DNA of 33,923 bases from Dehalococcoidia bacterium. GTDB taxonomy: Bacteria; Chloroflexota; Dehalococcoidia; DSTF01; JACRBR01. The stretch covers positions 1 to 33,923 of the forward strand of contig JANPBN010000097.1 in NCBI GenBank assembly GCA_031430415.1, in the 5' to 3' direction. A program made the position numbers and the translations under genes. A model generated the notes under the pieces. It ran no database searches and was not told where the DNA came from. It was given only the letters and a program-made list of their open reading frames with translations. Below, one piece after another: positions 2,230 through 31,863 of the stretch. Each line of letters begins with the position of its first letter. The stretch's first letter is position 1.

Positions 2230-2290
2230 GGTGTCTGCCGGGGTTCCGACCGGTGGGCTACGCGCATATCGTGGAATCAGGAGAGAGCCA

Positions 2291-4527: not shown

Positions 4528-4530
4528 TCG

Positions 4531-12857: not shown

Positions 12858-12862
12858 CCCGC

Positions 12863-17793: not shown

Positions 17794-18821
17794 GCCGGCA
17801 CCCGCTCTCGCGCTTCGACGCCGCGGCTGCGGGCGACGATCATGGTGAACATCTCCTCGAGAGTGAGTTCGCGTTTTCCGCACGACCACACATCGCCGCC
17901 GCTCTCGACGATGGACCGAACGATTGCGGGTACGGCTGCGGTGTCGCGCTTCAGGGCAAGTTCGAGGCGGTACTGATCGCCGCTGATGAGTACGGCCTTC
18001 AGCGAATCAACGCCCGGCACGGCGCGTAGTGACTCGATGGCCGCGTAGGTCAGCCCGCCGATGACGATCTGGTACAACTCGTCGGCCTGAAGCAGGTCAC
18101 GAAGTTCACCGATTTCGCCGATCATCTGGATCTCGCCAGAATCGATGAATGCAATCCGGTCGCAGAGCATTTCGGCTTCGGCCATGATGTTCGTCGCTAG
18201 GATCACGGTGCGTCGCTCATTGACGACGCGCTCGCGCACGAGTTGCCGGAGATCGAGTGCCGCCATCGGATCGAGTGCCCGCGTCGGTTCGTCCATGATC
18301 AGAATGTCAGGATCGTTGAGAAGCCCACGGGCGATGGATGCGCGCTGCTTCATCCCGGACGAGTAGTGGTGCATGCGGAGGTTCGCGGCGTGGGAGAGGC
18401 CCACGAGTTCGAGCAGTTCAAGCGCACGGCGCCGCGCGTCGCGGGCGGGAATACCGTAGAGCGCGGCGTAGAACAGCAGATTGTCGAGCGCCGAAAGGCG
18501 CCAGTAGAACGTGCGCTCGTCGCCGTACACGACGCCGATGCGCCTCCGAACCGCGAGGCTGTCCTTCACGACATCGAGCCCCGTGACGGTCGCCGTGCCG
18601 GAGGTCGGGATGCTGAGCGTCGAAAGGATCTTGACGAGCGTCGTCTTACCCGCGCCGTTCGGGCCGAGCAGTCCGAAGATCTCTCCATGCGGCACCGTCA
18701 GGCTGACGCTGTTCAATGCGACCTTGCCGGGCTCATGCTTGAAGATCGACTTCCATCCCTGCTGGGCCGGGAACTGCATCACAAGGTCGCGTGTCTGGAT
18801 CGCCGGCAGTGCGTGACTCAT
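17790..18821 (-). CDS. ABC transporter ATP-binding protein (DrrA/CcmA-like NBD with a ~100-aa C-terminal extension)
   Basis: Walker A GLLGPNGAGKTT, signature YSSGMKQR, Walker B ILIMDEPTRALD, H-loop region ILATNIM. Start MSHALPAIQTRDL is preceded by GGAGGA and forms an ATGA overlap with the upstream stop. The track ORF to 19271 is an Arg-rich extension. The C-terminal ~100 aa after the NBD are non-ABC. Confidence 0.9.
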   Translation of the reverse strand: MSHALPAIQTRDLVMQFPAQQGWKSIFKHEPGKVALNSVSLTVPHGEIFGLLGPNGAGKTTLVKILSTLSIPTSGTATVTGLDVVKDSLAVRRRIGVVYGDERTFYWRLSALDNLLFYAALYGIPARDARRRALELLELVGLSHAANLRMHHYSSGMKQRASIARGLLNDPDILIMDEPTRALDPMAALDLRQLVRERVVNERRTVILATNIMAEAEMLCDRIAFIDSGEIQMIGEIGELRDLLQADELYQIVIGGLTYAAIESLRAVPGVDSLKAVLISGDQYRLELALKRDTAAVPAIVRSIVESGGDVWSCGKRELTLEEMFTMIVARSRGVEARERVPA

Positions 18822-20635
18822 AGCGCGATCCTCCGCGCCTTGATGGAACCCACAACGAAACCGGCGAGCCACAGTCCCTGGCGTGCGCCGATCCCGGCAA
18901 CCGTTTTGGCTGAGTGAGGCCAGTTGCGTACCGGCCAGACATCGATGCGCGAGCTGACGGTGCCTACCCATGGCGCCGCGACGAGCAGCCATCGCCGCTG
19001 CCGGCGAGCCGCCGCCAGCGCGATGCCGGCCGCGGCAAGATCGAAGTACATCGTCTGGCGCGAGACGAAGATGCCGCTCACGAGCGTGCGATTTGCGTAC
19101 TCCGGTGCACGGGCAAGCAGCATCGGTACCTGCGCTGCGATGCGCATCTCCCGGCGCGGCCACCCTGCATTGGCCGCGTCGCGTGGGAACACGCGAAACT
19201 GGTAGACCTCTTCGCGGAACCGGGAGTTCCAGCCAAGCCGCCTCAAGCGCCACGCTAGCTCGGTATCCCATCCAAGCCTCGGTCCGCTCTGCGAATCGAA
19301 GGAGTCGGCGAAGCCACCCGCGGCAAGGGCGACGGCGTTGCGGTAAAAGGTGTTCGTGATCGGGAACATGTGCTCCGATGGCGGCGACTTCTCGTCCGGA
19401 TCGGGGCGCGTTCCGGCTACCTCGAGGTAGCGCTCCATGCTGCCATCGGCTGCGAAGATCGGCCCGGTGATGACCGCGGTGTCGCCGTCGAACCAGGTGA
19501 TCGCCGACTCGATCCAGTCCGGCGGCACGTGACAGGTGTCTTCGATGTGCGCTGAGATATCGCTGCGGAGCCCGGCCAGGACTTCGTTGCGAGAGGTTGG
19601 GCCGTCCACGCCAATGACCGTGCGGCGCACGTCACAGGCCGACGACCGCGCCATCGCGGCCACGATGTCCGGCGTATCGCGGTGGCGTCCGTCGTCGAGC
19701 ACGACGATCTCACGAAGCCCAGCGGGATACGTCTGGTCTTGCACGGCATCGAGCGTGGCGCGCAGGGCGGCGCCGCCGCTCCGCACGGACACGACGACGC
19801 TCACCGTTGGGTCGTCGATGCGCGTCTTGAGGCCTGCGCCATCGCCTGGGCGGCGCGCGCACTCGAGGATCAGAACATCGCGCAGGGTGGGGAGCGCCCA
19901 ACGAATCAGGCGGCCGGCTTTCCGCAGGGCGTATTCCGGCACGCTGAGGAGTTCCATCTCCATGAACGACTGCTCTGCCGTGACGGCGTCGCACCGCTGT
20001 ACGTGGAGGCCCGCTCCGCGCGCAATGTCGCGTAGTTCATCGCGATGGTAGAGTCGCGCCGTGTCGGTCGAAGGCCAGCCGAGCGAGAGCGCTGCAGTTT
20101 CGCCCTTCGGCGTGAAGGGCTTCCCGCGCATCGCCGAAAGCCGAAGGTCGAGTTTCGCCTGGTTTCGCGTCGCGACCAGGAGTTTGCCATGTGCTGCAAG
20201 CATGCGGCGGAGCGCGCGGAGTAGGCGCTGCGCATTCGGCTCGTCGAGTGCTTCGAGCACCAACGGAAGCACGATGAGGTCGTACGGCCCATCGGTCGCC
20301 TCGATGTCCGGCAGCGCGCTTGTAGTGACGTGGCGCGTCACGAAGCTCTTGGCCCCCTCAGTGAGGTAGGTGCCGGGAAGCTGCCACACACGAAGGTCCT
20401 TCGCGAATCGCGCCACGGACTCAACGAGCAGCGCGCTGCCGCCGATGATGAGCGTCCGGCCCGATGCGTGATGCTTCGACCGGCTGACAAGGTCGGCGAC
20501 GAGCGGCGCACCAAGCGTGAGATGGTGGTACGCGCGTTCGGCGATCTCGAGGTCATCGAGCACGTTCGCGACGAACGCGCGGGCCTCTTCTGGTGGCGGT
20601 GCGACAGCAGGAGCGGTGAGTGTCGTCGTCGTCAC
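18818..20635 (-). CDS. Fusion protein: N-terminal Rossmann/methyltransferase-like domain, GT2 glycosyltransferase domain, C-terminal membrane segments
   Basis: 605 aa; GTG start in a GTGA overlap. N-terminal ~270 aa: RTLIIGGSALLVESVA...YDLIVLPLVLEAL...GKLLVATRN, a class-I MTase-like layout with an atypical motif I. Middle: VSVVVSVRSGGAALRATLDAVQDQTYP, VVLDDG, DTELAWRLRRLGW (GT2). Hydrophobic C-terminus as in the two GT2 paralogues. Confidence 0.75.
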   Translation of the reverse strand: MTTTTLTAPAVAPPPEEARAFVANVLDDLEIAERAYHHLTLGAPLVADLVSRSKHHASGRTLIIGGSALLVESVARFAKDLRVWQLPGTYLTEGAKSFVTRHVTTSALPDIEATDGPYDLIVLPLVLEALDEPNAQRLLRALRRMLAAHGKLLVATRNQAKLDLRLSAMRGKPFTPKGETAALSLGWPSTDTARLYHRDELRDIARGAGLHVQRCDAVTAEQSFMEMELLSVPEYALRKAGRLIRWALPTLRDVLILECARRPGDGAGLKTRIDDPTVSVVVSVRSGGAALRATLDAVQDQTYPAGLREIVVLDDGRHRDTPDIVAAMARSSACDVRRTVIGVDGPTSRNEVLAGLRSDISAHIEDTCHVPPDWIESAITWFDGDTAVITGPIFAADGSMERYLEVAGTRPDPDEKSPPSEHMFPITNTFYRNAVALAAGGFADSFDSQSGPRLGWDTELAWRLRRLGWNSRFREEVYQFRVFPRDAANAGWPRREMRIAAQVPMLLARAPEYANRTLVSGIFVSRQTMYFDLAAAGIALAAARRQRRWLLVAAPWVGTVSSRIDVWPVRNWPHSAKTVAGIGARQGLWLAGFVVGSIKARRIAL

Positions 20636-21825
20636 GCGACCCCCGCCATGCGGCTATCGCGGGTGCGGCTCGATGCCATCGCCTCGAGCATGCCCTCGAG
20701 CTTGGCGCCAACGCGCGTGAGCGACCACGGCTCGGCCCACTCACGGCACGCCGCCGCGGTGCCCGGCTGGCGAGCGAGGTCGATGCCTGCGAGAACCGCG
20801 TCGGCGAGATCGTGGGCCGTGCGGTCACTCAGTAAATCGAAGTAGGTCTTGATCGGAACGGTCACGCCGACGCGTGGATCGGTGATGATCTCGCCGGGGC
20901 CGCTGTAGGCGCTACAGACGACGGGCGTCCCGGCAGCGAGCGACTCCGTCACCACCATGCCAAAGGCCTCCTCGACGGAGGGCAGTACGGTCACAGCGGC
21001 CTGAGCGTATGTGTGCGGCAAGCCTTCCAGCGTGCCGGGGCCGCGGATCTCGATGGCGTCGCGCGCCGAAGCGCTGCGCACGAGGTCGAGGCGCTCGAGC
21101 GTGTACACGTCGGAGCCGAAGTCGAATCCGACGAGACCGAACGGGCCGGCAAGCACGAGACGCGCCTCCGGGCAGCGGCGGTGTATTTCATCCCACGCGC
21201 GGAGCAACAGCGGGCCGCCCTTGCGGGGGTCGCCGAGGTCGCCGGTAAACAGCACCTGCGGGCGCGACAGATCCCGGCCGCCGAGTGGCTTGAATCGGTC
21301 CATATCAACGGGCGGTGGCAGTACCTCGACCGGAACGCCGTACTGCGCGGTGGCCTCGGCGGCGCCGTTCGGTGTCAGCGCGGCGACCTGGTTGGCGCGG
21401 CGCATCAACTGGTTGAACATCCACCGATCGAGCCGCCCGGGCCAGTAGTGATTCTTGACGATGAGGTGATAGAGGTACGGCAGGCCGATCCCCGCCTTGA
21501 GCAGAGGCGCCGCAACTACCGAGGAATAGCTCCACATGTGCGCGACGTCGTACTTGCCACGGATCAGGTGTTCCGTCGCACCGAGCCCGAACCCGTAGAG
21601 CCGCGCCAGCGGCCCGTACCGGTAGGTCAGCGGGTGCGAGAACTGGCGCAGATAGATTACGCGCACGGCGCCGTCATACGTCACGCGGGGCGCGCCGGGT
21701 TTGGACGTGATGATGTCCACCTCATGCCCCTGCGCCGCGAGGTAGCCGGACAGGTCGTGAATGCACCGCTCAGCGCCGCGGCGGATGTACGGCCAATACG
21801 TGGGATACGGGAAGACCACCTTCAT
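20632..21825 (-). CDS. Glycosyltransferase family 4
   Basis: 397 aa. N-terminus MKVVFPYPTYWPYIRRGAERCIHDL. Donor motif LPSVEEAFGMVVTESLAAGTPVVCSAYSGPGEII. Confidence 0.9.
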   Translation of the reverse strand: MKVVFPYPTYWPYIRRGAERCIHDLSGYLAAQGHEVDIITSKPGAPRVTYDGAVRVIYLRQFSHPLTYRYGPLARLYGFGLGATEHLIRGKYDVAHMWSYSSVVAAPLLKAGIGLPYLYHLIVKNHYWPGRLDRWMFNQLMRRANQVAALTPNGAAEATAQYGVPVEVLPPPVDMDRFKPLGGRDLSRPQVLFTGDLGDPRKGGPLLLRAWDEIHRRCPEARLVLAGPFGLVGFDFGSDVYTLERLDLVRSASARDAIEIRGPGTLEGLPHTYAQAAVTVLPSVEEAFGMVVTESLAAGTPVVCSAYSGPGEIITDPRVGVTVPIKTYFDLLSDRTAHDLADAVLAGIDLARQPGTAAACREWAEPWSLTRVGAKLEGMLEAMASSRTRDSRMAGVA

Positions 21826-21864: not shown

Positions 21865-22914
21865 CTACTTGAACGCGTGGAAGACGACTTTCGGAATCGG
21901 ATCCTGGAAGTTTGCGTGCAGGGTGAAGCGGGACTTCTCTTCCATGCGCGAGAACCGCGCGAGCTGAGCCCACACGCGATAGCACGTCGTGTTCGGGCGC
22001 CACCACACGTCACTCCGGCCCGAACCCGCGCGGGCGAATTGCGCCAGCGAGTTGCCGACGAACGCCTCGAGATCAGGGTGGTAGACATCGGCGAAGATCG
22101 CGAAGCCACCCGGCTTGACGACCTGCCAGACGGACTCCATCGCGCGGAGCGGCTCGCGAAGGTGAATGAGCAGGTCGCTGACGAAGACCATGTCGAACTG
22201 GCCGAGCTTCTCCGGATTCGCGTCGTAGACGCTGCAGATCACACGGTTGACCTTGGAGTTCTTGATCTCCTTGGCGATGCGGAATCCGACACCCATCTCG
22301 TGATCGACGCCCGACTTGTCGAACTCGTCCATCCAGTTCCGCGGAATGTCGATGTCGCGCATCGATGCGACGTCGATCGAGGTCACATCAGCGCCACGCC
22401 GCTCGAACTCGAACGCCCAGTAGCCGTCGAAGGTCGCGACATCGAGCACGCGCATGCCGGTCATGTCTTCGGGCAGATGGTAGAACGGCAGTTGGTCGCG
22501 GTGGTCGACGTAGCCCGGCGTCGAGACGCCATGGCCCAGGTCGATCGTGTGATACCACTGGTAGCCCGAGATCTTCTCGATGATCGCGCGCGCTTCGGGC
22601 GATGCCGGCTCGGTCAGCGGAGCGATCGGCTTGTTGGTGGGGCGGCCGGCCCGATAGATCGTCGGGTCGTCGTCGGTGTTGGGCGTGTGCCCATTGCCGT
22701 TCGTGTGCCCGTTGCCGTTCCCGTTGTGCCCACCCTTGCGCAGGCCGCTGATGCGGTCGAGCGCCGGGCGCACGACGTACTTGTACGGCACGCTGTTGCG
22801 CACTCGCTCAGCTTGCGTCGCGTCGAGCGCGATGCCGAGCTCCACGGAGCCGATGCGGATGCGGCGTTCGCGCTTCAGTGGCTCGGTCGGCCAGTTGCTT
22901 GTCTGCTGTGGCAT
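21865..22914 (-). CDS. Class I SAM-dependent methyltransferase, paralogue 1 (CmoB/DUF1698-like layout)
   Basis: Start at MPQQTSNW is preceded by GGAGGAGG; the track start 22977 has no RBS. Shared blocks with the other two paralogues: WYHTIDLGHGVSTPGYVDHR, VLDVATFDGYWAFEFERRGA, FDMVFVSDLLIHLREP. It carries a Gly/Asn/His-rich insert (GGHNGNGNGHTNGNGHT). Confidence 0.85.
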   Translation of the reverse strand: MPQQTSNWPTEPLKRERRIRIGSVELGIALDATQAERVRNSVPYKYVVRPALDRISGLRKGGHNGNGNGHTNGNGHTPNTDDDPTIYRAGRPTNKPIAPLTEPASPEARAIIEKISGYQWYHTIDLGHGVSTPGYVDHRDQLPFYHLPEDMTGMRVLDVATFDGYWAFEFERRGADVTSIDVASMRDIDIPRNWMDEFDKSGVDHEMGVGFRIAKEIKNSKVNRVICSVYDANPEKLGQFDMVFVSDLLIHLREPLRAMESVWQVVKPGGFAIFADVYHPDLEAFVGNSLAQFARAGSGRSDVWWRPNTTCYRVWAQLARFSRMEEKSRFTLHANFQDPIPKVVFHAFK

Positions 22915-22948
22915 GGTTCCTCCTCCGGTTTGGTGCGGCCGCACATCG

Positions 22949-23992
22949 TTATTCTGCGTGCGCGCCTGGGGGGACATGCCCCTTCAGAACTACCTTGTGG
23001 AACTTCCCGGCGCGGTTGGTCGCTTCGAACCGCGACACCTCTTCGATCGGGTCGAAGCCGGCGATCTCCATCATCCGTCGCATCGACTTGATGCTGTGGC
23101 GCCACCAGATGCCCATAACGCCGGTGCCCGTGAACTCGCTGACCGGGCGGTCCATCTCTTCGAGCTGTGGGTCGTAGGGCTCGGCGACGATGGCGCAGCC
23201 GCGAGAGACCGAGAACATGTTCTCGATCACCGTCTGCGGATCGCGCAGGCGCAGAAGCAGCTGGCTGATCAGCACGACATCGAACATGCCGAGCCGTTCG
23301 GGTGACACGTCGTAGACATTGACGGCGCGCCGCTCGGCCTTCGAGCCCAGGATCTGCTTCGCAAGCTGGAATCCCTGCCCGGGATATTCGATGCCGATGC
23401 TCGCCTGCTGGTCGTTCCAGATCTTGCGGTGGGAATCTTGCTGCTCGCCCCGTTCGCGCATGGCCTTCAGCTTCGCGAGGCGGGGAATGTCGTGCTCGAG
23501 CGGCGAATCGACATCGATGCCGACGACCTCGGTCGCGCCGCGGCGCTCCATCTCGAAGGACCAGAATCCGTCGTAGGTGCCAATGTCCAACCCTCGCCTG
23601 CCGGTGAGGTCTTCGGGCAGACCGAACAGCGGGACTGTGGCGCGGTTGTCGATGAAGCCCGGCGTGACGACGCCGTGCCCCAGGTCGATGGTGTGATACC
23701 AGCCGATCCCGGCGATGCGTTCGCGCATGTCCCGGGCCACCGGATCGTCATCGAGGGGCAGCGCCTCGGCTGTTGGCGCTTCGTTGACGGAGGTGACGTT
23801 CGGCGGTGCAGCATGCTCGCGCCGCCGGACGATGTCGAGGCCGGGACGCACGACGCGGCGATACAGACCGCTGTGCCGGACTTGCTCGGCCCGCTCAGCG
23901 TCGGCCGAGACTTCGACGCGGAAGCCGGCGATGCTGAAATCACGCTTGGTACGCGAAGCCAATTTTGGTTTCCTCGAGCGTTCGGCGGCCAC
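22949..23992 (-). CDS. Class I SAM-dependent methyltransferase, paralogue 2; first gene of the long downstream operon
   Basis: 347 aa, GTG start (GAGG 9 nt upstream); the alternative is TTG at 23962. Blocks: WYHTIDLGHGVVTPGFIDNR, GLDIGTYDGFWSFEMERRGA, FDVVLISQLLLRLRDP. Confidence 0.85.
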   Translation of the reverse strand: MAAERSRKPKLASRTKRDFSIAGFRVEVSADAERAEQVRHSGLYRRVVRPGLDIVRRREHAAPPNVTSVNEAPTAEALPLDDDPVARDMRERIAGIGWYHTIDLGHGVVTPGFIDNRATVPLFGLPEDLTGRRGLDIGTYDGFWSFEMERRGATEVVGIDVDSPLEHDIPRLAKLKAMRERGEQQDSHRKIWNDQQASIGIEYPGQGFQLAKQILGSKAERRAVNVYDVSPERLGMFDVVLISQLLLRLRDPQTVIENMFSVSRGCAIVAEPYDPQLEEMDRPVSEFTGTGVMGIWWRHSIKSMRRMMEIAGFDPIEEVSRFEATNRAGKFHKVVLKGHVPPGAHAE

Positions 23993-24031
23993 GCGCTGCG
24001 GCCTCGAATAGGTGGCATAGGGACGGTCGGT

Positions 24032-24065
24032 ATCTTATGGACAGGCGGTTAACCGATGGTTAACC
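24032..24065 (-). promoter_or_regulatory. SARP-type promoter: heptamer direct repeat plus -10 box upstream of methyltransferase paralogue 2
   Basis: The minus strand reads GTTAACC-ATCG-GTTAACC-GCCTGTCCA-TAAGAT. On the plus strand this is two GGTTAACC palindromes at 24047-24054 and 24058-24065, with ATCTTA at 24032-24037. It lies in the only long (207 nt) intergenic gap of the cluster, about 40-70 nt upstream of the start at 23992. Confidence 0.6.
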
Positions 24066-24199
24066 GGAACGACGGATTTGGCCTGCGCCGATCGCTGCCT
24101 GGCCCGCTATGAAGATGCGTTCAACCGGGGTACCGCGGCGAATCGGAATCGGCGGAGAGGCGGGAACGTCCGGCGCACGGAGTGCCAGTTATTGGCGGG

Positions 24200-25345
24200 T
24201 TAAATTCGGCGAATGCGCCGGCGGAGCGACTGCCAGAACGACGGCCTCATTTTCAGCACATCGTGCATCGGCAGCTCGCTGAGCGCTGCAACCAGCCGGC
24301 CCCCCGTCGCCGCGCCCACGCCGTCATCGAGCTGCTCATCGACATCGAGCATGGAACTGAGGATCACGATCTGACTGAACTGGTTGGCCACGGCGAGCCG
24401 GTAGTCGAGCCAGCAATCGTCATAGGAGTAATCTCGCACGCCGCCCTCCACGAGGAGCTCGTGGTATTGAGGCAGCAGCTCTCGTTCCGCGAGCGCGCGA
24501 TCGTTCGGCTGCAGGCTGCTGACGAACAGGTTCGCGATATCGATAGGCCCGCGGCCCCGCACGGCTGTCTGCCAGTCGATGAATGCTCGCGGCCCCCCCG
24601 CTTCGTCGAAGAGCACGTTGTTGACGCGCAGATCGCCGTGAACGAGCGTCTGCGGCGCCGTCGACAGCCGATCGACGACGGACTGGTCACGGGACAGCGT
24701 CGCACCGAGGCGAAGGATCACCGGCGGCATGTGCCGGCCGAAACGCCCCTCGAACGAACGCCACGCTCCCGGTCCTTCGGCGACGCCCAGCGCGGTGACG
24801 GATGGATCGTTGGGCGTGGGTAGCCAACGTTGGTCGCGAAGCTCGGCGGATTGCCACCAGGCCGCGTGCATTCCAGCTATCTGCTCGACGATGGCGCTCG
24901 CCTCGCTCAGGCTGCAGCCCCGGAGGAGGTCGCCGGCACGGGCACCGGTTACGTCCTCGAGCAGAAGCACGGCGCTCAGACCATCGGCGACGCCAAAGTA
25001 CATGGCGGGAACAGGGACGCCCACGCGCTCGGCCAGGGTGTCGTAGAAGTGCTGCTCGCGCTCGTAGATGCGTAGCCGCGACGCGATCTCGCGTGTGGCG
25101 GGGGCGCTCGACGGGAACTTCGCGATGAGTGTTACCGGGGCCTGATCCTCGGGGATGTCGTAGGTCAGACGCACGCGCACCACGCGCCCGGCCATGCCCT
25201 TGCCGGCGGGCTCCACATGAATGGACGCGACGTTCGCGCGCTGCAGCACAACGCCTCGGAGCGCAGCGGTGAGCCACGCGGCGCTGAGAGACTCCGGGCC
25301 GTCCGGGATGTCGCGGACGGGTGTGTGGCGCGTCGCGATTATCAT
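24200..25345 (-). CDS. APH/choline-kinase-fold phosphotransferase (eukaryotic-like kinase fold)
   Basis: 381 aa. Catalytic loop LVHGDLRVNNVLF (HxDxxxxN) and metal-binding IDWQ. Confidence 0.8.
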   Translation of the reverse strand: MIIATRHTPVRDIPDGPESLSAAWLTAALRGVVLQRANVASIHVEPAGKGMAGRVVRVRLTYDIPEDQAPVTLIAKFPSSAPATREIASRLRIYEREQHFYDTLAERVGVPVPAMYFGVADGLSAVLLLEDVTGARAGDLLRGCSLSEASAIVEQIAGMHAAWWQSAELRDQRWLPTPNDPSVTALGVAEGPGAWRSFEGRFGRHMPPVILRLGATLSRDQSVVDRLSTAPQTLVHGDLRVNNVLFDEAGGPRAFIDWQTAVRGRGPIDIANLFVSSLQPNDRALAERELLPQYHELLVEGGVRDYSYDDCWLDYRLAVANQFSQIVILSSMLDVDEQLDDGVGAATGGRLVAALSELPMHDVLKMRPSFWQSLRRRIRRI

Positions 25346-25351
25346 CAGCCG

Positions 25352-26950
25352 CTAGCCGCCGAGTTTCGCGATGACCTGGTTGAGGAGCACGAGCACCTTT
25401 GCCTGTGCGACACAGTCGGCGAGATAGTCGCCGGAACCACCGCATGAATCGACGTGCGGGCGCAGATCCTTCAGCGTAACGAGTGCGGCTGCGGGCGCGT
25501 TCGCTGCAATCTGGGCTGCCGCCGTCGCGAGCGGCGTGTTGATCTGAGAAGCGCTGGACCCTGGCGCGAATGCGGATCCGGGCAGCGCCGAGACGACGCC
25601 GGAGATCCAACTCGGGTCGGCGACAAGATAGCGGGCGAGTGCGAAGTCATCGCCGGCGGTACCGGGGTTGTAGGCATCGCCGACGAGAACCACGGCGCCA
25701 TCGGGAAACAGAGCCAGTGCGTGGGCGCCATCTGCTCCGCCGAAGAAGTCGGTGGTGACGTGGCCGCCGCTCCCGAAGGTTGCGTCGGGACTCCCATCCT
25801 GGTTGTAACGGAAGAGCGCGAAGTCAAAGCTGGTCGCCGGGTGGACGCTGTGGCCGGCGCCGATGATCTTGCCATCGGGCTGAATCGCGAGCCACAGGAT
25901 CTGGTCGTACTCGCCAGAGACATCGGTGACGCCGATGCCGGGTGCGCCGAACGCGGCAAATCCGGTGTCGAGACTGCCATTTGTGTTCAGCCGCATGATG
26001 GCGGCATCGTTGTCAGCGCCGGCCGGGTTGAACGCGTAGCCCGCCGCGACGATCTTTCCGTCGGCCTGGAGCGTCACGGCCCACGCGATGTCGGTTCCGC
26101 CGAGGAAGTCACGCATCACCAGGCCGCCCCAGCCGAATGACGCGTCGCGGCCACCGTTGGCGTTGTATCGCGCGACGGCCATGTCGTGGTTCGCCGTCTT
26201 GGGGTTGAACGCCATGCCGACGGCGACGATCCTTCCATCGGGCTGAAGAGCGATCTTCATCGCCGCGTCGTTGCTTCCCGCGAAGTCCGTCGTAACGAGC
26301 CCACCCCAACCGAAACTGCCGTCGCGGCTGCCGTTTGCGTTGTAGCGTGCCAGCGCGAACTCTGAGTTGTTTGCGGTCCGATAGGCGAATCCCGCAGCAA
26401 CGATCTTGCCATCGACCTGAACGGCGACACCGAGCACAGTGTCCGCGCCGCCGAAGAAGTCGGTCATGACGATGCCGCCCCAGCCAAACGTGCCGTCACG
26501 GCTGCCGTTCGCGTTGAGGCGCGCAATCCCGAAGTCCGCGTTTCCTGCCGCGCGATCAGCGCGCCCGGCAATCACGATCTTGCCATCCGGTTGAAGCGCG
26601 ACGGACAGGCCTTCGTCGTACCCGCCAACGAAGTCCACGAGGACGATGCCGCCCTGCCCAAACGACGGATCGAGCGTTCCGTTCGGCCGGTACCGAAGCA
26701 CGGTGGCATCGAACGATCCCGTCGACGGATTGCGGGCCTTACCGGCGATCACCATGTTTCCATCGGGTTGCACCGCCATGGAGAACGGCTCGTCCTCGTA
26801 CCCGCCGGCGCCGGAAACATCGAGGAGCGCTCGGCCGTTGGCGCCGAACGTTGGATCGAGCAGCACCGGTACGGTGGCCGCATCGGCGACGAGGAGGATC
26901 GAAAACAGCGCCGCAGAAGTTGCTGCGAGGAGAAGCAGCGCGCGTTTCAT
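25352..26950 (-). CDS. Secreted delta-60-repeat protein (7 repeats, predicted beta-propeller) with a Cys-containing helical C-terminal module
   Basis: Signal peptide MKRALLLLAATSAALFSILLVADA. Seven ~58-61-aa repeats follow, of the form [LR]D.[ST]FG.GG.V..DF.GG.D.A.AVALQ.DGKIV.AG.A.......DFA.ARYN.NGS. The ATG forms an ATGA overlap with the upstream methyltransferase stop. Confidence 0.85.
   Translation of the reverse strand: MKRALLLLAATSAALFSILLVADAATVPVLLDPTFGANGRALLDVSGAGGYEDEPFSMAVQPDGNMVIAGKARNPSTGSFDATVLRYRPNGTLDPSFGQGGIVLVDFVGGYDEGLSVALQPDGKIVIAGRADRAAGNADFGIARLNANGSRDGTFGWGGIVMTDFFGGADTVLGVAVQVDGKIVAAGFAYRTANNSEFALARYNANGSRDGSFGWGGLVTTDFAGSNDAAMKIALQPDGRIVAVGMAFNPKTANHDMAVARYNANGGRDASFGWGGLVMRDFLGGTDIAWAVTLQADGKIVAAGYAFNPAGADNDAAIMRLNTNGSLDTGFAAFGAPGIGVTDVSGEYDQILWLAIQPDGKIIGAGHSVHPATSFDFALFRYNQDGSPDATFGSGGHVTTDFFGGADGAHALALFPDGAVVLVGDAYNPGTAGDDFALARYLVADPSWISGVVSALPGSAFAPGSSASQINTPLATAAAQIAANAPAAALVTLKDLRPHVDSCGGSGDYLADCVAQAKVLVLLNQVIAKLGG
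25622..26860 (-). repeat. Seven in-frame ~175-185-bp divergent tandem repeats encoding the delta-60 blades
   Basis: Read from the translation. Repeats start at LDPTFGANG, LDPSFGQGG, RDGTFGWGG, RDGSFGWGG, RDASFGWGG, LDTGFAAFG and PDATFGSGG. Confidence 0.8.
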
Positions 26951-27927
26951 CGGGCGGAGACTTCCGTCGTGCGCGCGTGTGCCGGTGCGGCCGTATCGTC
27001 ACTCGAACGTCGCGCCCGGAAGATCACCTTTTCGACCGGAAACGGGTGGTGGTAGACCAGCGGCAAGCGCGCGACCTCGTCGACAGTATCGAAGCCGGCG
27101 ACCTGGAGCATTGTGCGCAGCGTCATCGTCGACGGCACGGACCAGATGTACTGGTAGAAGCCGAAGAACTGCGTCATGGCGGTGTTCCCCAGCCCCTCCA
27201 ACTCCGGATTGTACGGTTCGGCGAGGAGCAGGAACCCTCCCGGCTTCAGCATGGGGTAGATGCGTTCCAGCGCACGCTGCGGGTCGCGCAGGTGCAGCAT
27301 CAGATCGCTGACGAACACCATGTCGAAGGTGCCGAGGTCATGCGGCGAGAGATCGTACACGCTCACAGTTCGCCGCTCGACGCGCGAGCCGAGCAGTTCG
27401 TGGGCGAGGCGAAATCCGGCGCCTGTCGGCGTATCTTCGTCCGGGGCCATGCGTTCGAGCGTTCGGAGCGGAATGTCGGCGTGAAACCATGACGGGATGT
27501 CCGTGGCGACGACGACGGCGCCCCGGCGCTCCATCTCGAACGCCCAAAACCCGTCGAAGGTAGCGACTTCGAGCACGCGCATACCGTGCATGTCGGCGGG
27601 CAGGCAATAGCGATCCCTGATGGCGCGGTGGTCAACATATCCGGGCGTCACAACGCCGTGGGGCAGTTCAATGACGTGGTACCAGTCGACACCCTGAACG
27701 CGCTCGGCGATCGCGCGCGCTGGCGGAGACACGTACGCGGACGGATCGAGCGTGGCGCGCGTCCCGGGCAGATCCAGTGGCGCCGAAGACTGGGCGGCAC
27801 GGCCGAACAGCCGCAGGACGGGCGCGGCAAGGCGACGGATGCGGCGCGCCTGCCGCTCTTCGACGCCAAGCGCAATCTCGAAGCCCGCGATGCGGAGGCG
27901 TCGGCGCCGGACCATCGTGTCAGCCAT
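26947..27927 (-). CDS. Class I SAM-dependent methyltransferase, paralogue 3
   Basis: Start at MADTMVRRRRLRIAGF lies 11 nt after the upstream stop. The track extension to 28026 is Arg-rich and overlaps the upstream gene. Blocks: WYHVIELPHGVVTPGYVDHR, VLEVATFDGFWAFEMERRGA, FDMVFVSDLMLHLRDP. Confidence 0.85.
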   Translation of the reverse strand: MADTMVRRRRLRIAGFEIALGVEERQARRIRRLAAPVLRLFGRAAQSSAPLDLPGTRATLDPSAYVSPPARAIAERVQGVDWYHVIELPHGVVTPGYVDHRAIRDRYCLPADMHGMRVLEVATFDGFWAFEMERRGAVVVATDIPSWFHADIPLRTLERMAPDEDTPTGAGFRLAHELLGSRVERRTVSVYDLSPHDLGTFDMVFVSDLMLHLRDPQRALERIYPMLKPGGFLLLAEPYNPELEGLGNTAMTQFFGFYQYIWSVPSTMTLRTMLQVAGFDTVDEVARLPLVYHHPFPVEKVIFRARRSSDDTAAPAHARTTEVSAR

Positions 27928-27938
27928 TGTCGTCTTTC

Positions 27939-28706
27939 TCAGCTGCCGGCGGCGGCGGCCGCGCCATCGATTTCTGCGGTGGCTCGGCCGGCGGCCGGCG
28001 CGTAGCGTCGCGCGTGCTCCTGCCATGCCGGAGTCAACTCCTGCTGGTCCTTCAGCGTATCCATCGAACGCCAGAAACCACGGTGACGATAGATGTACAG
28101 ATCCTGCCGCTGCGCGAGATGTGGAAGCACATCGCGCTCAAGATTCTCGCCGTGCCAGCGATCGAAGGCCGACGAGTCGAACACGAAGAAGCCGGCGTTG
28201 ATCAATCGATCGGGGAGGATGGGCTTCTCCTCGAAGTGCGTGACGCATCCCTGGTCGTCCGAGTGCACAAGCCCGTACTGCGAGCGAAGCGGCACGGCCG
28301 TCATCGTCGCGTTCCCTCGATGCGTCTCGTGGAACTCGACGAGCGCTGCGAGGTCGATGTCGCCCAGTCCATCGCAATATGTCGCGTGGAACGTGGGCGT
28401 CAGGTAGTCGCGGCAACCAAGGATGCGGCCGCCTGTGCCGGTCGTATCGCCCGTATCGACGCAGCGTACACGCCATCCGAGGGCGTCCTCTCGTCGCGCG
28501 AAATGGTCGATGATTTGGTCTTTCAGGTAGCCGACCGAGAGCACGAAGTCACGGTATCCGGCGGCAGCGTAGATGCGCATGACCTGCTCAACGATCGGCG
28601 CATCGCCGACGTCCATCAGAGCCTTCGGCATGCGCTGCGTGTACGGGTAGGCGCGGGTACCGAGTCCGCCGCACAGGATCACCACGGTCATGTCGCGCTG
28701 CGTCAT
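27939..28706 (-). CDS. rfbF: Glucose-1-phosphate cytidylyltransferase-like sugar nucleotidyltransferase
   Basis: About 255 aa. VVILCGGLGTRAYPYTQRMPKALMDVGDAPIV, VDTGDTTGTGGRI, YCDGLGDIDL, INAGFFVFD and HRGFWRSMDTLKD follow the RfbF pattern. The ATG (MTQRDMTVV) forms an ATGA overlap with the upstream stop; the alternative ATG is at 28691. Confidence 0.75.
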   Translation of the reverse strand: MTQRDMTVVILCGGLGTRAYPYTQRMPKALMDVGDAPIVEQVMRIYAAAGYRDFVLSVGYLKDQIIDHFARREDALGWRVRCVDTGDTTGTGGRILGCRDYLTPTFHATYCDGLGDIDLAALVEFHETHRGNATMTAVPLRSQYGLVHSDDQGCVTHFEEKPILPDRLINAGFFVFDSSAFDRWHGENLERDVLPHLAQRQDLYIYRHRGFWRSMDTLKDQQELTPAWQEHARRYAPAAGRATAEIDGAAAAAGS

Positions 28707-29743
28707 CGGACGCTCCCGTTGGCGCCGGCCTTCGCGAACTCGCGTGGCAGCGATGGCTCGAATCCCAGGAACTCGCGATACCACCGCACGCTCTGCATGA
28801 TGCCCGAATCCAGGGACACTTGCGGCGCCCAGTCGAGGATCCGTGCCGCCTTCTCCGAGGAGAGCCATTGCCGTGCTATCTCGCCGCGGTTCTGGCCCTG
28901 AATGACAGGCTCCAACGGCGCCGGAGCGTGCGCGAGAATCTGGCGAACGATCTCGAGCACAGAGTAACCCCGTCCCCAGCCGAAGTTGAACGCCTGCCCG
29001 CGCACATCGTCGCGACCGACGTTCCGCGCGAGGGTCAAGTATGCATCGACCGCGTCACTCACGTACATGTAGTCTCGCTCAAGCGTTCCATCGCTGCGGA
29101 TCACCGGCGCCTCGCCGTTGAGCATCGAGCGGATGGTGCCGGGGACGACGCGGGACCAGTTCAGGTCGCCGGGGCCGTAGATGTTCGCGCAGCGAACGAT
29201 TGCCATCGGCAGGCTATAGGTGACGGCGTAGCTGCGGGCGATCGTCTCCGCACAGAGCTTGGACGCGTCGTAGGGGTAGACCGCGGACAACGGACTATCC
29301 TCGTGGTACGGAAGAACCGGTTGATCGCCATACACCTTGTCGCTCGAGGCGAAGACGAGGCTCTGAAGGAACGAACTCTGTCGGGCTGCCTCCAGCAGCG
29401 TCCAGGTTCCGCGGATGTTCGACTCGAACGTCGACAGCGGCGAGCGATTCGCGACGCCTACGATGGCCTGGGCAGCGAGATGGAAGCAGTGCTGCACCTC
29501 GTATTCGTTGAAGGCGCGTTCAACGGTGGCGTAGTCGGCGATCGAACCGTGGACGATCTCCACCCGGCCGGTGAGGCCGAGCATGTCCAGCCGCCTGTCG
29601 CCACGTGAGTCGCGGAGAATGCCGACGACGTGCGCGCCCTGCTCGACGAGAGCAGCAGCGAGTTGACTCCCCACAAAGCCACCGATGCCGGTGACAAGCG
29701 CTCGCTGCCCACGCCAGTAGCCGGTGCCGTTGTTCGAGGCCAT
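28703..29743 (-). CDS. Extended-SDR NAD-dependent sugar dehydratase/epimerase (CDP-glucose 4,6-dehydratase-like)
   Basis: YWRGQRALVTGIGGFVGSQLA (GxxGxxG), SSDKVYG and the catalytic YPYDASK (YxxxK). The N-terminal YWRG..LVTG and the position next to the rfbF-like gene suggest RfbG-type. Start at ATG 29743 (AAGGGAG about 7 nt upstream) overlaps the upstream TAA by 1 nt (TAATG). Confidence 0.65.
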   Translation of the reverse strand: MASNNGTGYWRGQRALVTGIGGFVGSQLAAALVEQGAHVVGILRDSRGDRRLDMLGLTGRVEIVHGSIADYATVERAFNEYEVQHCFHLAAQAIVGVANRSPLSTFESNIRGTWTLLEAARQSSFLQSLVFASSDKVYGDQPVLPYHEDSPLSAVYPYDASKLCAETIARSYAVTYSLPMAIVRCANIYGPGDLNWSRVVPGTIRSMLNGEAPVIRSDGTLERDYMYVSDAVDAYLTLARNVGRDDVRGQAFNFGWGRGYSVLEIVRQILAHAPAPLEPVIQGQNRGEIARQWLSSEKAARILDWAPQVSLDSGIMQSVRWYREFLGFEPSLPREFAKAGANGSVR

Positions 29744-30471
29744 TACCATGCTCCCTTGCCGCTGACGATCACGGGAATTGTCCGTGCGAGAATCCAGATG
29801 TCGAGCCAAAGGGACCAGTCCCGCGCGTACCGGATGTCCATTTCCACCATCTCGCCAAACGACAACAAGCTGCGACCGTTCACCTGCCACAGACCTGTGA
29901 TGCCGGGCACGGCCAGCACACGGTGCGCGTGGTAGTCGCTCAGTGGGTTGCCCGCTTCCTCCGGCAGGGCGGGACGCGGCCCGACGAGGCTCATATCGCC
30001 GCGGAGCACGTTGAACAGCTGCGGCAGCTCATCGATGCTGAAGCGGCGGATCCAGCCGCCGACAGAGGTGCGTCGAGGGTCATGCTTGATCTTGAAGAGC
30101 GGTCCGTCAGCTTGGTTTTGGTTCGCCAGGCCACCCTTGGCGACATGGGCGTTCACAGCCATCGAGCGAAACTTGTACATACGGAACGGACGCCCGCTGA
30201 GCCCGACGCGCTCCTGCACGTGGAGTACCGGCCCACTGGAGTCGAGCTTGATCGCTAGCGCCACGACGAGCATTGGCGGGCCGAGCAAGACGAGTCCGGC
30301 CGCAGCGACGACGATGTCAATCAACCGCTTGAGCGCCATCTGGAGGCGCTTGGCCTGCTGGCCCCACGAAGTCGGCGCCGGAATCACCCACATGGCGCTC
30401 ACAGCCACCAGGCGAAGCGATTCTGCGGGCAGCGGTGTCGCGGTCAATGTGGTGCCGAGATGCTGTTCCAT
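29743..30471 (-). CDS. Initiating phosphoglycosyl transferase (bacterial sugar transferase family, small WbaP/WcaJ/PglC-like)
   Basis: 242 aa. LKRLIDIVVAAAGLVLLGPPMLVVALAIKLDS re-entrant helix, then RPFRMYKFRSM, GPLFKIKHDPR, DELPQLFNVLRGDMSLVGPRP, PGITGLWQV. GAAGGA lies 8 nt upstream of the ATG. Confidence 0.9.
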   Translation of the reverse strand: MEQHLGTTLTATPLPAESLRLVAVSAMWVIPAPTSWGQQAKRLQMALKRLIDIVVAAAGLVLLGPPMLVVALAIKLDSSGPVLHVQERVGLSGRPFRMYKFRSMAVNAHVAKGGLANQNQADGPLFKIKHDPRRTSVGGWIRRFSIDELPQLFNVLRGDMSLVGPRPALPEEAGNPLSDYHAHRVLAVPGITGLWQVNGRSLLSFGEMVEMDIRYARDWSLWLDIWILARTIPVIVSGKGAW

Positions 30472-30496: not shown

Positions 30497-30529
30497 AACC
30501 TAGCAACGGGTGGTTAAGCCTCGGTTAAG
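30497..30529 (-). promoter_or_regulatory. SARP-type promoter: heptamer direct repeat plus -10 box upstream of the phosphoglycosyl transferase operon
   Basis: The minus strand reads CTTAACC-GAGG-CTTAACC-ACCCGTTGC-TAGGTT. On the plus strand this is GGTTAAG at 30512-30518 and 30523-30529, with AACCTA at 30497-30502. The repeats overlap the last codons and stop of the 71-aa ORF. Confidence 0.6.
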
Positions 30530-30729
30530 TCGCGCCTTGCGTCATCCGTCTTGATGACGGTTCGAATAAATGAAAGCGCGTGAGCAAACTCGCGAAAGCG
30601 CATTCCGGCGTTTGTCGCGACGTGCCGAATCTCGCCGTGCTCCACCATGCCGGGCTCTTCGACCCACAGGCGGATGACGAACGTCTCATAACGCTTTGTG
30701 CTGGCGGGATGTCCGCGAGTGGTCCGCAA
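30514..30729 (-). CDS. Small (71 aa) protein of unknown function
   Basis: TTG start, preceded by GGGGGTAG. The sequence MRTTRGHPASTKRYETFVIRLWVEEPGMVEHGEIRHVATNAGMRFREFAHALSFIRTVIK.. has the pattern F-V-I-R-L-W..E, then G-x-I-x-H-V, then F..L..FI. I recognise this pattern from uncharacterised small proteins. It has its own SARP-type promoter. Confidence 0.5.
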   Translation of the reverse strand: MRTTRGHPASTKRYETFVIRLWVEEPGMVEHGEIRHVATNAGMRFREFAHALSFIRTVIKTDDARRDLTEA

Positions 30730-30858: not shown

Positions 30859-31863
30859 TCATGGAAATAGCGACTCAAACGCACGTACCGTGTCTGTGCC
30901 GGGAGAAGCGCCGATCTCTCGTTTGAGCATCGTGCGACAGACGGCGTACCAGGCGCCGGCGCGCGCATGCTGATTCAACGCGCCGTGGCACTGCATCAGC
31001 ATGCGGTAGGCGTCCTCGCGGCAAGGATCCGCATCGATGATCTTGTGGCAATAGCGAATGGCGTCCCGCGCATCGCCGTTCTGCATGGCAAGTTCCGCGA
31101 GATTGCTCACGATCTCCAAGTACACGTCGCGTAGCTGTTCGCGACGGATGATCGTCCAATCGTCGTAGATGTCTTCTTCGAGCAGGTCGCCGGCGTACAG
31201 ACGCTCGGCCTCGCGGTACTCGCGGCGCGCGAGTTCAATCTCTTGGGCAGCTTGAAACGCCGTGCCGCGCCGCCAGTGCCGCTCCAGCGATTCGGTATCG
31301 ATCCAGACCTTGGCATCCCGGTTCAGGCCGTATGTGCCATCCCGGAAGACCACCCAGCGGTCATGCGTGCCCGCCGTCCTTCCGGGTTCCAGAATGCTGC
31401 GCAGGTTGTGCGCTGCGACCTTCAGTGACACGCCGCCGGTGACCGGGTCGGTGTCAGGCCACAGCATCTCCATAAGTGCGTCTCGCGGCAAGATGCGATC
31501 CCTGTGGCTGGCGAGGATCTTCAAGAGCGAACGAGCCTTGCCACCGAGGCGAGCGGTGACATCCTCACCATTCACAGCGACACGGAACGACGCCATCATG
31601 TGGATCGCGAGGCTAGGGGACGGGGCGGCGCCGCGATCTGTTTTGATCGCGTCCGTATCGCTCGCTGCATCGTCGCGCAGCAGGTAGGGCGGCACGTCCG
31701 ACCGGGGGGACGCCATTCTGCGTGTGGTCACGTTGTGCCCCTCGATAACTGGAGCGCCCTCAACGCGGAAACGACGGACTGTAGCGCGGCCGCGAGTGCC
31801 GCACGATGCATGCTCGAAAACAGAAGCCACCCCCAGAGGCACGGCTTCCTTGCCTTGCACCAT
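30859..31863 (-). CDS. SARP-family transcriptional activator (OmpR-type winged helix plus BTAD domain; AfsR/DnrI/RedD family)
   Basis: FRVAVNGEDVTARLGGKARSLLKILASHRDRILPRDALMEMLWPD is a Trans_reg_C-like domain. The TPR-like BTAD follows (AQEIELARREYREAERLYAGDLLEEDIYDDW...REDAYRMLMQCHGALNQHARAGAWYAVCRTMLKREIGASP). The start is uncertain: ATG at 31863 gives an ~88-aa N-terminal extension, while ATGs at 31599/31596 (MMASFRV) give a canonical ~245-aa small SARP. None has a clear SD. Confidence 0.85.
   Translation of the reverse strand: MVQGKEAVPLGVASVFEHASCGTRGRATVRRFRVEGAPVIEGHNVTTRRMASPRSDVPPYLLRDDAASDTDAIKTDRGAAPSPSLAIHMMASFRVAVNGEDVTARLGGKARSLLKILASHRDRILPRDALMEMLWPDTDPVTGGVSLKVAAHNLRSILEPGRTAGTHDRWVVFRDGTYGLNRDAKVWIDTESLERHWRRGTAFQAAQEIELARREYREAERLYAGDLLEEDIYDDWTIIRREQLRDVYLEIVSNLAELAMQNGDARDAIRYCHKIIDADPCREDAYRMLMQCHGALNQHARAGAWYAVCRTMLKREIGASPGTDTVRAFESLFP

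Follow-up and report, generated by a model that had tools for sequence, protein, structure and literature searches.

The described systems closest to the locus analysed here are the polymerase-terminator systems of Enterobacteria, such as WbdD-Wzt of Escherichia coli O9a and Klebsiella pneumoniae O3. In those that have been characterised, the terminator is found in a coiled-coil 'ruler' protein, and the carbohydrate-binding module (CBM) of Wzt admits only capped chains (PMC11231755). The methyltransferase (MT) of WbdD specifically modifies phosphate acceptors; H132, H133 and R203 are required, and R31, R36, N34, Q35 and H197 line an anion pocket (PMC3482155). In Klebsiella O7, ORF6 is an MT-kinase pair unrelated to WbdD, with an aminoglycoside-type (AmiN) kinase-like domain (PMC11231755), and methyl-phosphate chemistry thus arose more than once. 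Here, we analysed a 33.9 kb stretch of DNA with ~65% G+C (hereafter the window; contig JANPBN010000097.1) from a Dehalococcoidia bacterium, in which three MT genes and a kinase gene share a locus with an ATP-binding cassette (ABC) exporter. An earlier note, made from this sequence, had read these genes as a split WbdD-like system, in which a methyl or methyl-phosphate cap stops elongation and licenses export, or else as the machinery for extensive O-methylation of a polysaccharide.

Sets of paralogous sugar O-methyltransferases occur in the mycobacterial pathways for methylmannose polysaccharides and methylglucose lipopolysaccharides (MMP/MGLP), glycopeptidolipids (GPL) and phenolic glycolipids (PGL), and in the pathway of the Geobacillus S-layer glycan, where WsaE is associated with a 2-O-methyl cap. 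WsaE has an MT domain fused to domains of glycosyltransferase (GT) family 2 and works in an ABC-transporter-dependent pathway. To our knowledge, none of these systems includes a kinase or a propeller module. Dehalococcoidia-type Chloroflexota are abundant but for the most part uncultured. Hardly anything is known about their envelope glycans, and our literature search on O-methylated wall polysaccharides of Chloroflexi retrieved nothing functional. We propose, with moderate confidence, that the cluster in the window makes a methylated glycan by an ABC-transporter-dependent pathway, and that an optional module formed by a propeller (D60), the kinase and one of the methyltransferases (MT2) decorates this polymer with phosphate or methyl phosphate.

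A conserved cluster with an accessory triad

The genes in the window form a nearly unbroken series on the minus strand. Four of them encode MT1 (21865..22914), MT2 (22949..23992), the kinase (24200..25345) and MT3 (26947..27927), as the earlier note had listed them. These open reading frames (ORFs) were confirmed by the independent gene call of a second assembly of the same DNA (locus L001), which has identical boundaries and gives proteins of 349, 347, 381 and 326 aa, respectively. Between the kinase and MT3, on the same strand, lies the gene of D60 (25352..26950), a secreted beta-propeller of the delta-60/DUF5122 type (TIGR02608 356 bits, PF17164 208 bits). The gene of D60 and that of the kinase are separated by 6 nt or overlap.

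About 17 loci of Chloroflexota/Dehalococcoidia metagenome genomes contain the cluster in the same arrangement; all carrier genomes are metagenome-assembled and belong to uncultured Chloroflexota. Gene order is shared by L002, L004, L005, L009, L010, L086/L108, L105 and L110-L112, and is rearranged in L007 and L008. The core consists of a primer transferase, genes for a nucleoside diphosphate (NDP) hexose, at least two MTs with a CmoB-like fold, a GT4, a fusion of an MT-like domain with a GT2, a DrrA-like ABC-2 exporter, two GT2s and a protein resembling polysaccharide co-polymerases (PCP). This core is found both with and without the kinase. The kinase-less loci (L106, L107 and L109) were obtained by selecting loci through MT3-like proteins, independently of the kinase. 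They keep 2-4 MTs, the GT4, the GT2 fusion, the ABC exporter and the PCP-like gene; L106 and L107 also keep the NDP-hexose genes, and the sequence of L109 begins downstream of that position. D60, the kinase and an MT2-type gene are absent from all three. Since such clusters retain both the exporter and the glycosyltransferases, these are independent of the kinase.

D60, the kinase and MT2 are found together in 14 loci and are jointly absent from 3. D60 is always immediately upstream of the kinase (14/14 kinase-bearing loci, against 0/3 kinase-less ones). Directly downstream of the kinase, or of a second copy of it, comes MT2 in each of the 14 loci whose sequence reaches this position. When three loci were picked via MT2-type proteins instead, the D60-kinase pair was directly upstream in every one. 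In the rearranged loci L007 and L008 the three genes are contiguous, while the remaining genes are inverted. Given this joint presence or absence, and a contiguity that holds through rearrangement, D60, the kinase and MT2 constitute a contiguous accessory triad.

Three lineages of methyltransferases

MT1, MT2 and MT3 are indeed paralogues: they share 41-42% pairwise identity over ~300 aa, with 87 invariant columns. The motifs by which the earlier note had recognised them (WYH[TV]I[DE]L.HGV.TPG, [DE][VI][AG]T[FY]DG[FY]W[AS]FE[FM]ERRGA and FD[MV]V..S.L.L.LR[DE]P) are present in all three. The basic N-terminal motif R.RI.G is literal in MT3 (RLRIAG) but only loosely shared with MT1 (RIRIG) and MT2 (FSIAG), where one Arg and the Ile are the only invariant positions. 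All three proteins pass the Pfam cut-off of Methyltransf_23 (35-46 bits, including 37 for MT1 and 46 for MT3; cut-off 27). Residues L119, D125, G126 and D143 are invariant and the modelled fold is Rossmann-type, as in class-I S-adenosylmethionine (SAM) methyltransferases.

Reciprocal scores and a neighbour-joining tree separate the three proteins into distinct orthologous lineages. MT1 always adjoins the GT4; its orthologs are 52-78% identical, occupy the same position and form a clade of their own, in which a motif SD..LH is invariant. MT3 adjoins the NDP-hexose (RfbF/RfbG-like) genes and travels with them. The MT2 clade gathers kinase-adjacent genes only, has a specific insertion of ~22 aa and carries substitutions at columns that are otherwise invariant: VDHR becomes IDNR, SDLLLHLRDP becomes SQLLLRLRDP and LDVAT becomes LDIGT. 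Relative to all other members of the family, MT2 has thus exchanged Asp for Gln, His for Arg and His for Asn. This signature is present in 71 out of 75 MT2-type protein clusters. Among the 120 MT3-like matches listed, 103 fit the motif pattern, all of them with Asp and His at the two positions after beta-4, and the remaining 17 are outside the search pattern. We refer to MT1 and MT3 as the 'Asp/His' type.

The AlphaFold2 model of MT3 (pLDDT 89) is compact, with a longest helix of 19 residues. It is closest to CmoB (TM-score 0.55-0.57), followed by the sugar-binding methyltransferase EvdMO1, ToxA and others, whereas a PDB search using the single sequence gives weak generic matches only. The MT profile matches 43 PDB sequences at E-values up to 10, and WbdD is neither among them nor among the top 50 Foldseek matches of the MT3 model. 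In an alignment of hidden Markov models (HMM), the variable Asp and His columns correspond to G197 and H201 of CmoB, beside Y200. The pocket of CmoB binds sulfate, and M196, G197 and Y200 of this enzyme are in contact with the group being transferred (PMC4482062). The loss of Asp and of two His in MT2, with the gain of Arg, Gln and Asn, would be as expected for an enzyme whose acceptor is an anionic phosphate and not a hydroxyl in need of deprotonation. Together with the kinase-MT2 pairing, these predicted changes in the active site fit a chemistry like that of WbdD, in which a kinase acts before a methyltransferase.

These proteins are related to CmoB without being CmoB: they score 21-32 bits against TIGR00452 and NF011650, whose equivalog cut-offs are 275 and 209. 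The residue at the place of CmoB K91 is an almost invariant His (judged by eye from motif spacing), Y200 corresponds to Leu in the HMM alignment, and R315 is possibly equivalent to an invariant Lys (by eye). Carboxymethyl transfer from carboxy-SAM was set aside, because Lys-91, critical for the use of carboxy-SAM (PMC4482062), is replaced. We also considered a phosphoethanolamine-to-phosphocholine pathway (a kinase, three N-methylations and a cytidylyltransferase), prompted by weak matches to phosphoethanolamine N-methyltransferases. It was rejected because these matches span only the generic C-terminal half of the MT fold, because the nucleotidylyltransferase is paired with a 4,6-dehydratase, and because there are clusters that keep these two genes and lack the kinase.

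Homologs of MT3 number more than 3,000 and, where named, come from metagenome genomes of Dehalococcoidia, Chloroflexota or Dormibacteraeota; JGI labels them 'tRNA (mo5U34)-methyltransferase'. At the position of MT3, some loci encode a fusion of two MT domains of this family (~600 aa; L110 885-2708, L112 2028-3845; proteins P0286, P0293).

The kinase of the triad

The kinase scores 65 bits against EcKL (cut-off 22) and 56 bits against APH (cut-off 23) in Pfam, in agreement with the APH-type fold that had been suggested for it. It has the residues expected in this superfamily: the beta-3 Lys, the alpha-C Glu, the HxDxxxxN loop and the metal-binding Asp. In the cluster the loop reads HGDxxxxN and is conserved; K76, E97, H236, D238 and N243 are invariant, and D257 is at least 90% conserved, so the catalytic residues are intact. 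The AlphaFold2 model (pLDDT 93, pTM 0.91) is compact and has a tail of ~20 aa as its sole extension. Among solved structures, those nearest in fold are Rv3168, a 25-hydroxysteroid kinase, N-acetylhexosamine 1-kinase, APH(4), APH(2''), macrolide phosphotransferases and choline kinase. A profile search additionally matches the kinase domain of ACAD10/11 and the viomycin and hygromycin kinases, and a single-sequence search of the PDB yields weak generic matches only. WbdD is missing from the best 60 profile matches and from the top 50 Foldseek matches of the model.

The homologs of the kinase fall into two sharply separated groups. Those with at least 42% identity occur in Chloroflexota genomes only, all within the cluster, adjoining an MT and near an ABC exporter; ~90 homologs with at most 39% identity, from many phyla, are never linked to it. 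The kinase is therefore not a stray antibiotic kinase. The earlier note had named two signs that would speak against its proposal, a grouping with antibiotic or small-molecule kinases and a lack of co-occurrence with the cluster. The first is what we found; the second is contradicted by the placement of the orthologs. The C-terminal tail, rich in Arg, Trp and Leu and with a net charge of +2 to +13, is present in 13/13 cluster kinases and absent from 19/20 non-cluster homologs. We infer from its composition that it may be a membrane-binding amphipathic helix, which would place the enzyme where the lipid-linked glycan is assembled.

A second, more divergent kinase paralogue (38-43% identity) is found in L004, L105, L111, L087, L088, L009, L010 and L110, placed upstream of D60 or directly after the first kinase. 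Glycosyltransferases of family GT1 (EryCIII-like/GT28) are encoded in the variants L004, L105 and L106. The module appears to be diversifying.

The exporter and its C-terminal domain

The ABC exporter reported in the earlier note is encoded by the fifth and sixth genes downstream of the kinase, an ATPase (17790..18821) and an ABC-2 permease (16999..17793; PF01061, PF12698), both on the minus strand. A longer ORF (17790..19271) over-extends the ATPase by ~150 codons. The ATPase matches the DrrA model TIGR01188 end to end (positions 7-300 of 302), at 249.7 bits for a cut-off of 312.45. Its best PDB matches are nucleotide-binding domains of ABCA transporters, and residues 35-332, C-terminal domain included, align to PDB 4YER.

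That the ATPase has an extra C-terminal domain, of ~108 aa, is correct; that this domain could read a cap is not borne out. When isolated, it matches PF13732 (DrrA1-3_C) in 6 out of 8 orthologs (best E-value 3.6e-5), and the ATPase of the window scores 19-21 bits against this family, for a cut-off of 27.4. In the same 8 orthologs, neither Wzt_C nor any family other than PF13732 was matched at E-values up to 10. A profile of the domain found nothing significant in the PDB, and no Wzt CBM; this search did not by itself identify the fold. Kinase-less clusters retain the same domain. By these sequence comparisons, the extension appears to be of the generic DrrA1-3_C/DUF4162 type and not a Wzt carbohydrate-binding module.

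The secreted propeller

D60 has a Sec-type signal peptide and a C-terminal helical region with two Cys, both of which are also seen in orthologs. Our literature search on DUF5122/delta-60 retrieved nothing functional. The C-terminus of D60 (25352-25600) resembles that (3040-3349) of a secreted TSP3-repeat protein encoded elsewhere in the window (2228..3349). Over ~60 aa the two ends are similar (29% identity; pairwise E = 0.002), each a helical region in which two Cys are conserved, and all D60 orthologs keep the pattern ...GC..PD..DW..C.AQ..VR.L....KL. This region may serve both proteins for anchoring or sorting.

A model for the cluster and its alternatives

The cluster contains what an ABC-transporter-dependent pathway comprises: a polyprenyl-phosphate glycosyl-1-phosphate transferase (Bac_transf), an ABC ATPase, an ABC-2 permease and cytoplasmic GT2 and GT4 enzymes. 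No Wzx flippase was seen in it. In the model that we propose, polyprenyl phosphate carries the growing glycan on the cytoplasmic side of the membrane. There, MT1 and MT3 would O-methylate sugar hydroxyls, probably with the Asp/His pair as general base, and MT3 would probably act on the residue that stems from the NDP-6-deoxyhexose branch. For these two enzymes, the extensive O-methylation offered as an alternative in the earlier note fits well. The kinase, held at the membrane by its tail, would phosphorylate a sugar hydroxyl of the lipid-linked glycan. The phosphorylated glycan would then be the substrate of MT2, in which the acidic and general-base residues are gone and an Arg is new; methylation of the phosphate would be the most economical reaction. 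This succession of kinase and MT2 would be the same two-step chemistry as in WbdD and Klebsiella O7 ORF6. The ABC-2 transporter would export the product without cap-gating and, outside the cell, the co-inherited propeller might bind, anchor or process the modified glycan, which is the most speculative step of the model.

The idea of a WbdD-like chemistry, phosphorylation followed by methylation, thus survives in the kinase and MT2, and is strengthened by the signature of MT2; the capping and export logic that had been attached to it does not. We hold the specific methyl-phosphate step, i.e., the methylation of a phosphate by MT2, more tentatively than the general model, as a possible but doubtful reading of its active-site residues.

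Several points weigh against our proposal. In the trees of the GT4 and of the ATPase, the kinase-bearing loci fall into one clade that excludes the kinase-less ones. A single gain or loss, instead of a repeated independent association, may therefore explain why D60, kinase and MT2 co-occur, and we downgraded the co-occurrence as independent statistical evidence. The acceptor of the kinase is not readable from its modelled fold, whose neighbours are small-molecule kinases, all with TM-scores of at most 0.51. The placement of the MT2 substitutions at the site of methyl transfer comes from a weak HMM alignment with CmoB (12 bits), and the role given to the propeller is deduced purely from linkage. 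Finally, extra kinase copies and 2-4 MT copies suit a stoichiometric decoration as well as a single cap.

The least improbable alternative is a glycolipid or natural-product-like pathway, akin to those of PGL or GPL. In such a pathway, a lipid or small aglycone would bear a deoxyhexose that the several O-methyltransferases per-methylate; the product would leave through a DrrAB-type pump, and the kinase would modify or inactivate the small molecule. The ATPase and the permease do match the DrrA and DrrB families best, a regulator of the SARP (Streptomyces antibiotic regulatory protein)/BTAD type adjoins the cluster, the GT1 enzymes of L004, L105 and L106 are EryCIII-like, and the neighbours of the kinase include antibiotic and steroid kinases. 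We nevertheless judge this explanation improbable. The polyprenyl-phosphate glycosyl-1-phosphate transferase is always present where the sequence reaches its position, and at least four polymer-type GT2/GT4 enzymes occur with the PCP-like protein. A Wzy_C protein is also encoded nearby (10348..12090 in the window, and in L003); all these are hallmarks of polysaccharide assembly. Genes for polyketide synthases, non-ribosomal peptide synthetases or lipid synthesis were not seen in any locus.

Another alternative is the split WbdD-like terminator. In this reading, a cap put on the non-reducing end by the kinase and an MT would both halt elongation and license export, and the C-terminus of the ATPase would read it. 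It would account for an ABC-transporter-dependent pathway with a polyprenyl-phosphate primer enzyme, for the invariable adjacency of kinase and MT2 and for a kinase tail directed to the membrane; moreover, two non-homologous MT-kinase terminators are already known (PMC11231755). Yet the known terminators have a coiled-coil ruler and a Wzt CBM (PMC11231755), and neither has a counterpart here. The kinase and MT3 models are compact and lack long helices, MT1 and MT2 have 349 and 347 aa, and ~60 residues separate the two domains of the GT2 fusion, leaving no coiled-coil ruler among these proteins. The C-terminus of the ATPase resembles the DrrA1-3_C type, with neither Wzt_C nor a CBM among its matches, and WbdD is not among the profile or fold matches of the enzymes. 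The kinase-less clusters L106, L107 and L109 keep the orthologous exporter, with the same C-terminal domain, and the glycosyltransferases, which argues at the genomic level against chain termination and cap-licensed export. Lacking WbdD homology, a ruler and a CBM, and with an exporter that persists in kinase-less clusters, capping and export-licensing are not supported, and we regard a split terminator as quite improbable.

A supply of precursors would give the kinase another place. It would be an anomeric sugar-1-kinase feeding the nucleotidylyltransferase, as in salvage of the AmgK-MurU/NahK type, and the MTs would act on nucleotide sugars instead of the polymer. N-acetylhexosamine 1-kinase is among the top fold neighbours of the kinase, the sugar-binding EvdMO1 is one of MT3, and the cluster includes a nucleotidylyltransferase and a dehydratase. 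These genes do not follow the kinase, however: L106 and L107 retain both in its absence, and L007 and L008 have the kinase and neither gene within 10 kb. It is MT3, and not the kinase, that travels with them; the kinase has D60 and MT2 as its invariant partners. A basic amphipathic tail would also be unexpected in a soluble salvage kinase, and we deem this explanation very unlikely. That the kinase and MT2 modify the propeller itself, before or during its secretion, and not a glycan, is hardly credible in spite of the strict linkage of the three genes and the overlap or near-contact of the D60 and kinase genes, because D60 carries a Sec-type signal peptide, the EcKL/APH relatives are small-molecule kinases, the family neighbours of the MTs act on small molecules or RNA, and the module is embedded among glycan genes.

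A tandem palindromic motif in kinase-bearing loci

The window contains three copies of a tandem palindromic motif, GGTTAACC-N3-GGTTAACC, which has a period of 11 nt; 0.01 copies were expected. One (24047..24065) lies in the gap between the kinase and MT2, 55-73 nt upstream of the MT2 start. The second, a GGTTAACC-like tandem (30512..30530), lies 41-59 nt upstream of the start of Bac_transf, and thus upstream of the operon of the primer transferase, and the third (2196-2214) is upstream of the gene of the TSP3-repeat protein. The motif has 25 matches in 328 kb of kinase-bearing cluster loci, compared with 2 in 1385 kb of unrelated loci. It is found at equivalent positions in L002, L004, L005, L007-L010, L086, L088, L105, L110 and L111, and there is none in the kinase-less clusters. 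We regard it as a candidate operator for a regulator of the cluster, which the adjoining SARP/BTAD gene might encode.

Scans of the entire window against Rfam, including the 207-nt gap between kinase and MT2, matched no riboswitch or other RNA element. A scan for promoter and terminator consensus sequences between 16.5 and 32.5 kb gave a number of sites not above that of shuffled sequence.

Other genes of the cluster and of the window

The genes described in this section are all on the minus strand. Upstream of MT3 lie those for the sugar donor and for priming. The sugar-1-phosphate nucleotidylyltransferase (27939..28706; PF00483) has glucose-1-phosphate cytidylyltransferase as its best match, below the family cut-off (TIGR02623, 183 bits for a cut-off of 300). 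A short-chain dehydrogenase/reductase resembling NDP-hexose 4,6-dehydratases (28703..29743; PF01370, PF16363) likewise matches CDP-glucose 4,6-dehydratase best, under its cut-off (TIGR02622, 180 bits for 278). The polyprenyl-phosphate glycosyl-1-phosphate transferase, the primer enzyme, follows (29743..30471; PF02397 219 bits, TIGR03025 289 bits), and the SARP/BTAD-type regulator, with a weak match to AfsR-type SARPs, adjoins the cluster at 30859..31863. A BTAD gene is at the same position in L002, L105 and L108.

On the other side of MT1, the core GT4 (20632..21825; PF13439, PF00534) has orthologs of 55-79% identity in every locus that reaches its position. It is followed by the core fusion, a protein of 605 aa with an N-terminal MT-like domain, a GT2 and a hydrophobic C-terminal end (18818..20635; PF00535). 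The match of the MT-like domain to Methyltransf_23 is weak, and missing in some orthologs; its motif I is apparently degenerate by eye (LIIGGSA, with no acidic residue). The domain may be a structural remnant or a terminating MT like that of WsaE. Beyond the exporter are two paralogous core GT2s, assigned from their family matches, the first of them MftF/EpsD-like (15972..17012 and 14917..16116). The PCP-like protein (13534..14904), with two transmembrane segments and a weak KpsE/BexC match, keeps its position downstream of the GT2 genes in orthologous loci. Next to it is a CpsD-like P-loop protein resembling BY-kinases (bacterial tyrosine kinases; 12863..13525), with sub-threshold matches to TIGR01007 and TIGR03029. 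Its scores are far under the cut-offs and its Walker A motif is seemingly degenerate (HPGDGRS, with Arg for Lys, by eye), so that a role as a pseudo-kinase alongside the PCP-like protein is possible.

The rest of the window comprises a further GT2 (11883..13121), which precedes the Wzy_C gene, and a stretch with five GT4s and a GH99/DUF5010-like protein (3385..10427). The latter (6863-7972) stands among the GT4 genes and has an N-terminal membrane anchor; such proteins recur beside the clusters of L003 (19916-20929), L105 (3561-4502) and L106 (2078-3154), and may be glycan-processing hydrolases. Long antisense ORFs (522-692 aa) without family matches are present at 21013-23091, 4048-5616 and 8850-10526 of the plus strand, an expected artefact of the 65% G+C.

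Comparison with known systems

In summary, we propose a conserved and clearly bounded gene set for a methylated surface polymer in Dehalococcoidia-type Chloroflexota. It suggests a working function for a large MT family, whose metagenomic members exceed 3,000 and are currently annotated in pipelines as the tRNA enzyme CmoB. Two signatures, Asp/His and Gln/Arg, would predict which paralogues act on hydroxyls and which on phosphorylated acceptors. CmoB is the closest solved fold. The two families share a motif W-x-[KH] ... G-V ~38 residues before motif I and the segment FD..F/S....H.R.P after beta-4; they differ in genomic context, which is glycan synthesis here and tRNA modification for CmoB.

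The pathways for methylated glycoconjugates (MMP/MGLP, GPL, PGL and the WsaE system) resemble the cluster in having several regiospecific O-methyltransferase paralogues within one glycan or glycolipid cluster, and sequence and profile searches of the PDB detected no relationship with solved members of these sets. With DrrAB and other ABCA-type exporters the cluster shares an ATPase that matches the DrrA model, 4YER and the ABCA nucleotide-binding domains, and a C-terminal domain that matches PF13732 in most orthologs. Unlike DrrAB, this ATPase falls under the cut-off of TIGR01188 and belongs to a polysaccharide-type cluster, where an exporter of the Wzm/Wzt or TarGH type would be expected.

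Like WbdD-Wzt, the system is predicted to make an ABC-transporter-dependent glycan on polyprenyl phosphate and pairs a kinase with a SAM methyltransferase; the predicted acceptor site of MT2, rich in His, Arg, Asn and Gln, recalls that of the phosphate-specific MT of WbdD. The differences are more numerous. Kinase and MT are separate proteins here and one fused polypeptide in WbdD; the kinase has the EcKL/APH fold of small-molecule kinases, whereas that of WbdD is Src/ROCK-like; the MT has a CmoB-like fold; the ATPase has no CBM; the kinase module is dispensable for the core; and a secreted propeller is co-inherited with it. Since homology, fusion, ruler and CBM are missing, and since the core does without the kinase, this is not a WbdD-type system.

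If the reactions proposed for the kinase and MT2 are confirmed, glycans would have acquired methyl phosphate at least three times in evolution, through kinases and MTs of different folds, and here uncoupled from the checkpoint logic of coiled-coil ruler and CBM known in Enterobacteria. There would also be a first functional handle on delta-60/DUF5122 propellers. We can go one step further, to a reading that we consider unlikely: the triad would be a third, independently evolved and fully split installer of methyl phosphate, made of a membrane-tethered EcKL-type kinase and a CmoB-fold MT with Gln/Arg in place of the Asp/His pair, whose mark is read outside the cell by D60 and not inside it by a Wzt CBM. 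This would give delta-60/DUF5122 proteins their first function, as extracytoplasmic 'cap readers' in Chloroflexota envelopes.

K. pneumoniae O7 ORF6 offers a parallel. Its kinase domain belongs to the same superfamily as the kinase of the cluster (PMC11231755), and its MT is fused to GT2 modules, recalling the MT-like/GT2 fusion of 605 aa. In O7, a coiled coil and a CBM-like domain are part of the same giant polypeptide, ORF6, and Wzt has a CBM, whereas here the activities are on separate small proteins, with neither ruler nor CBM. What the gene content suggests they have in common is the decoration of an ABC-exported glycan by a kinase and a methyltransferase, here in an uncultured phylum.

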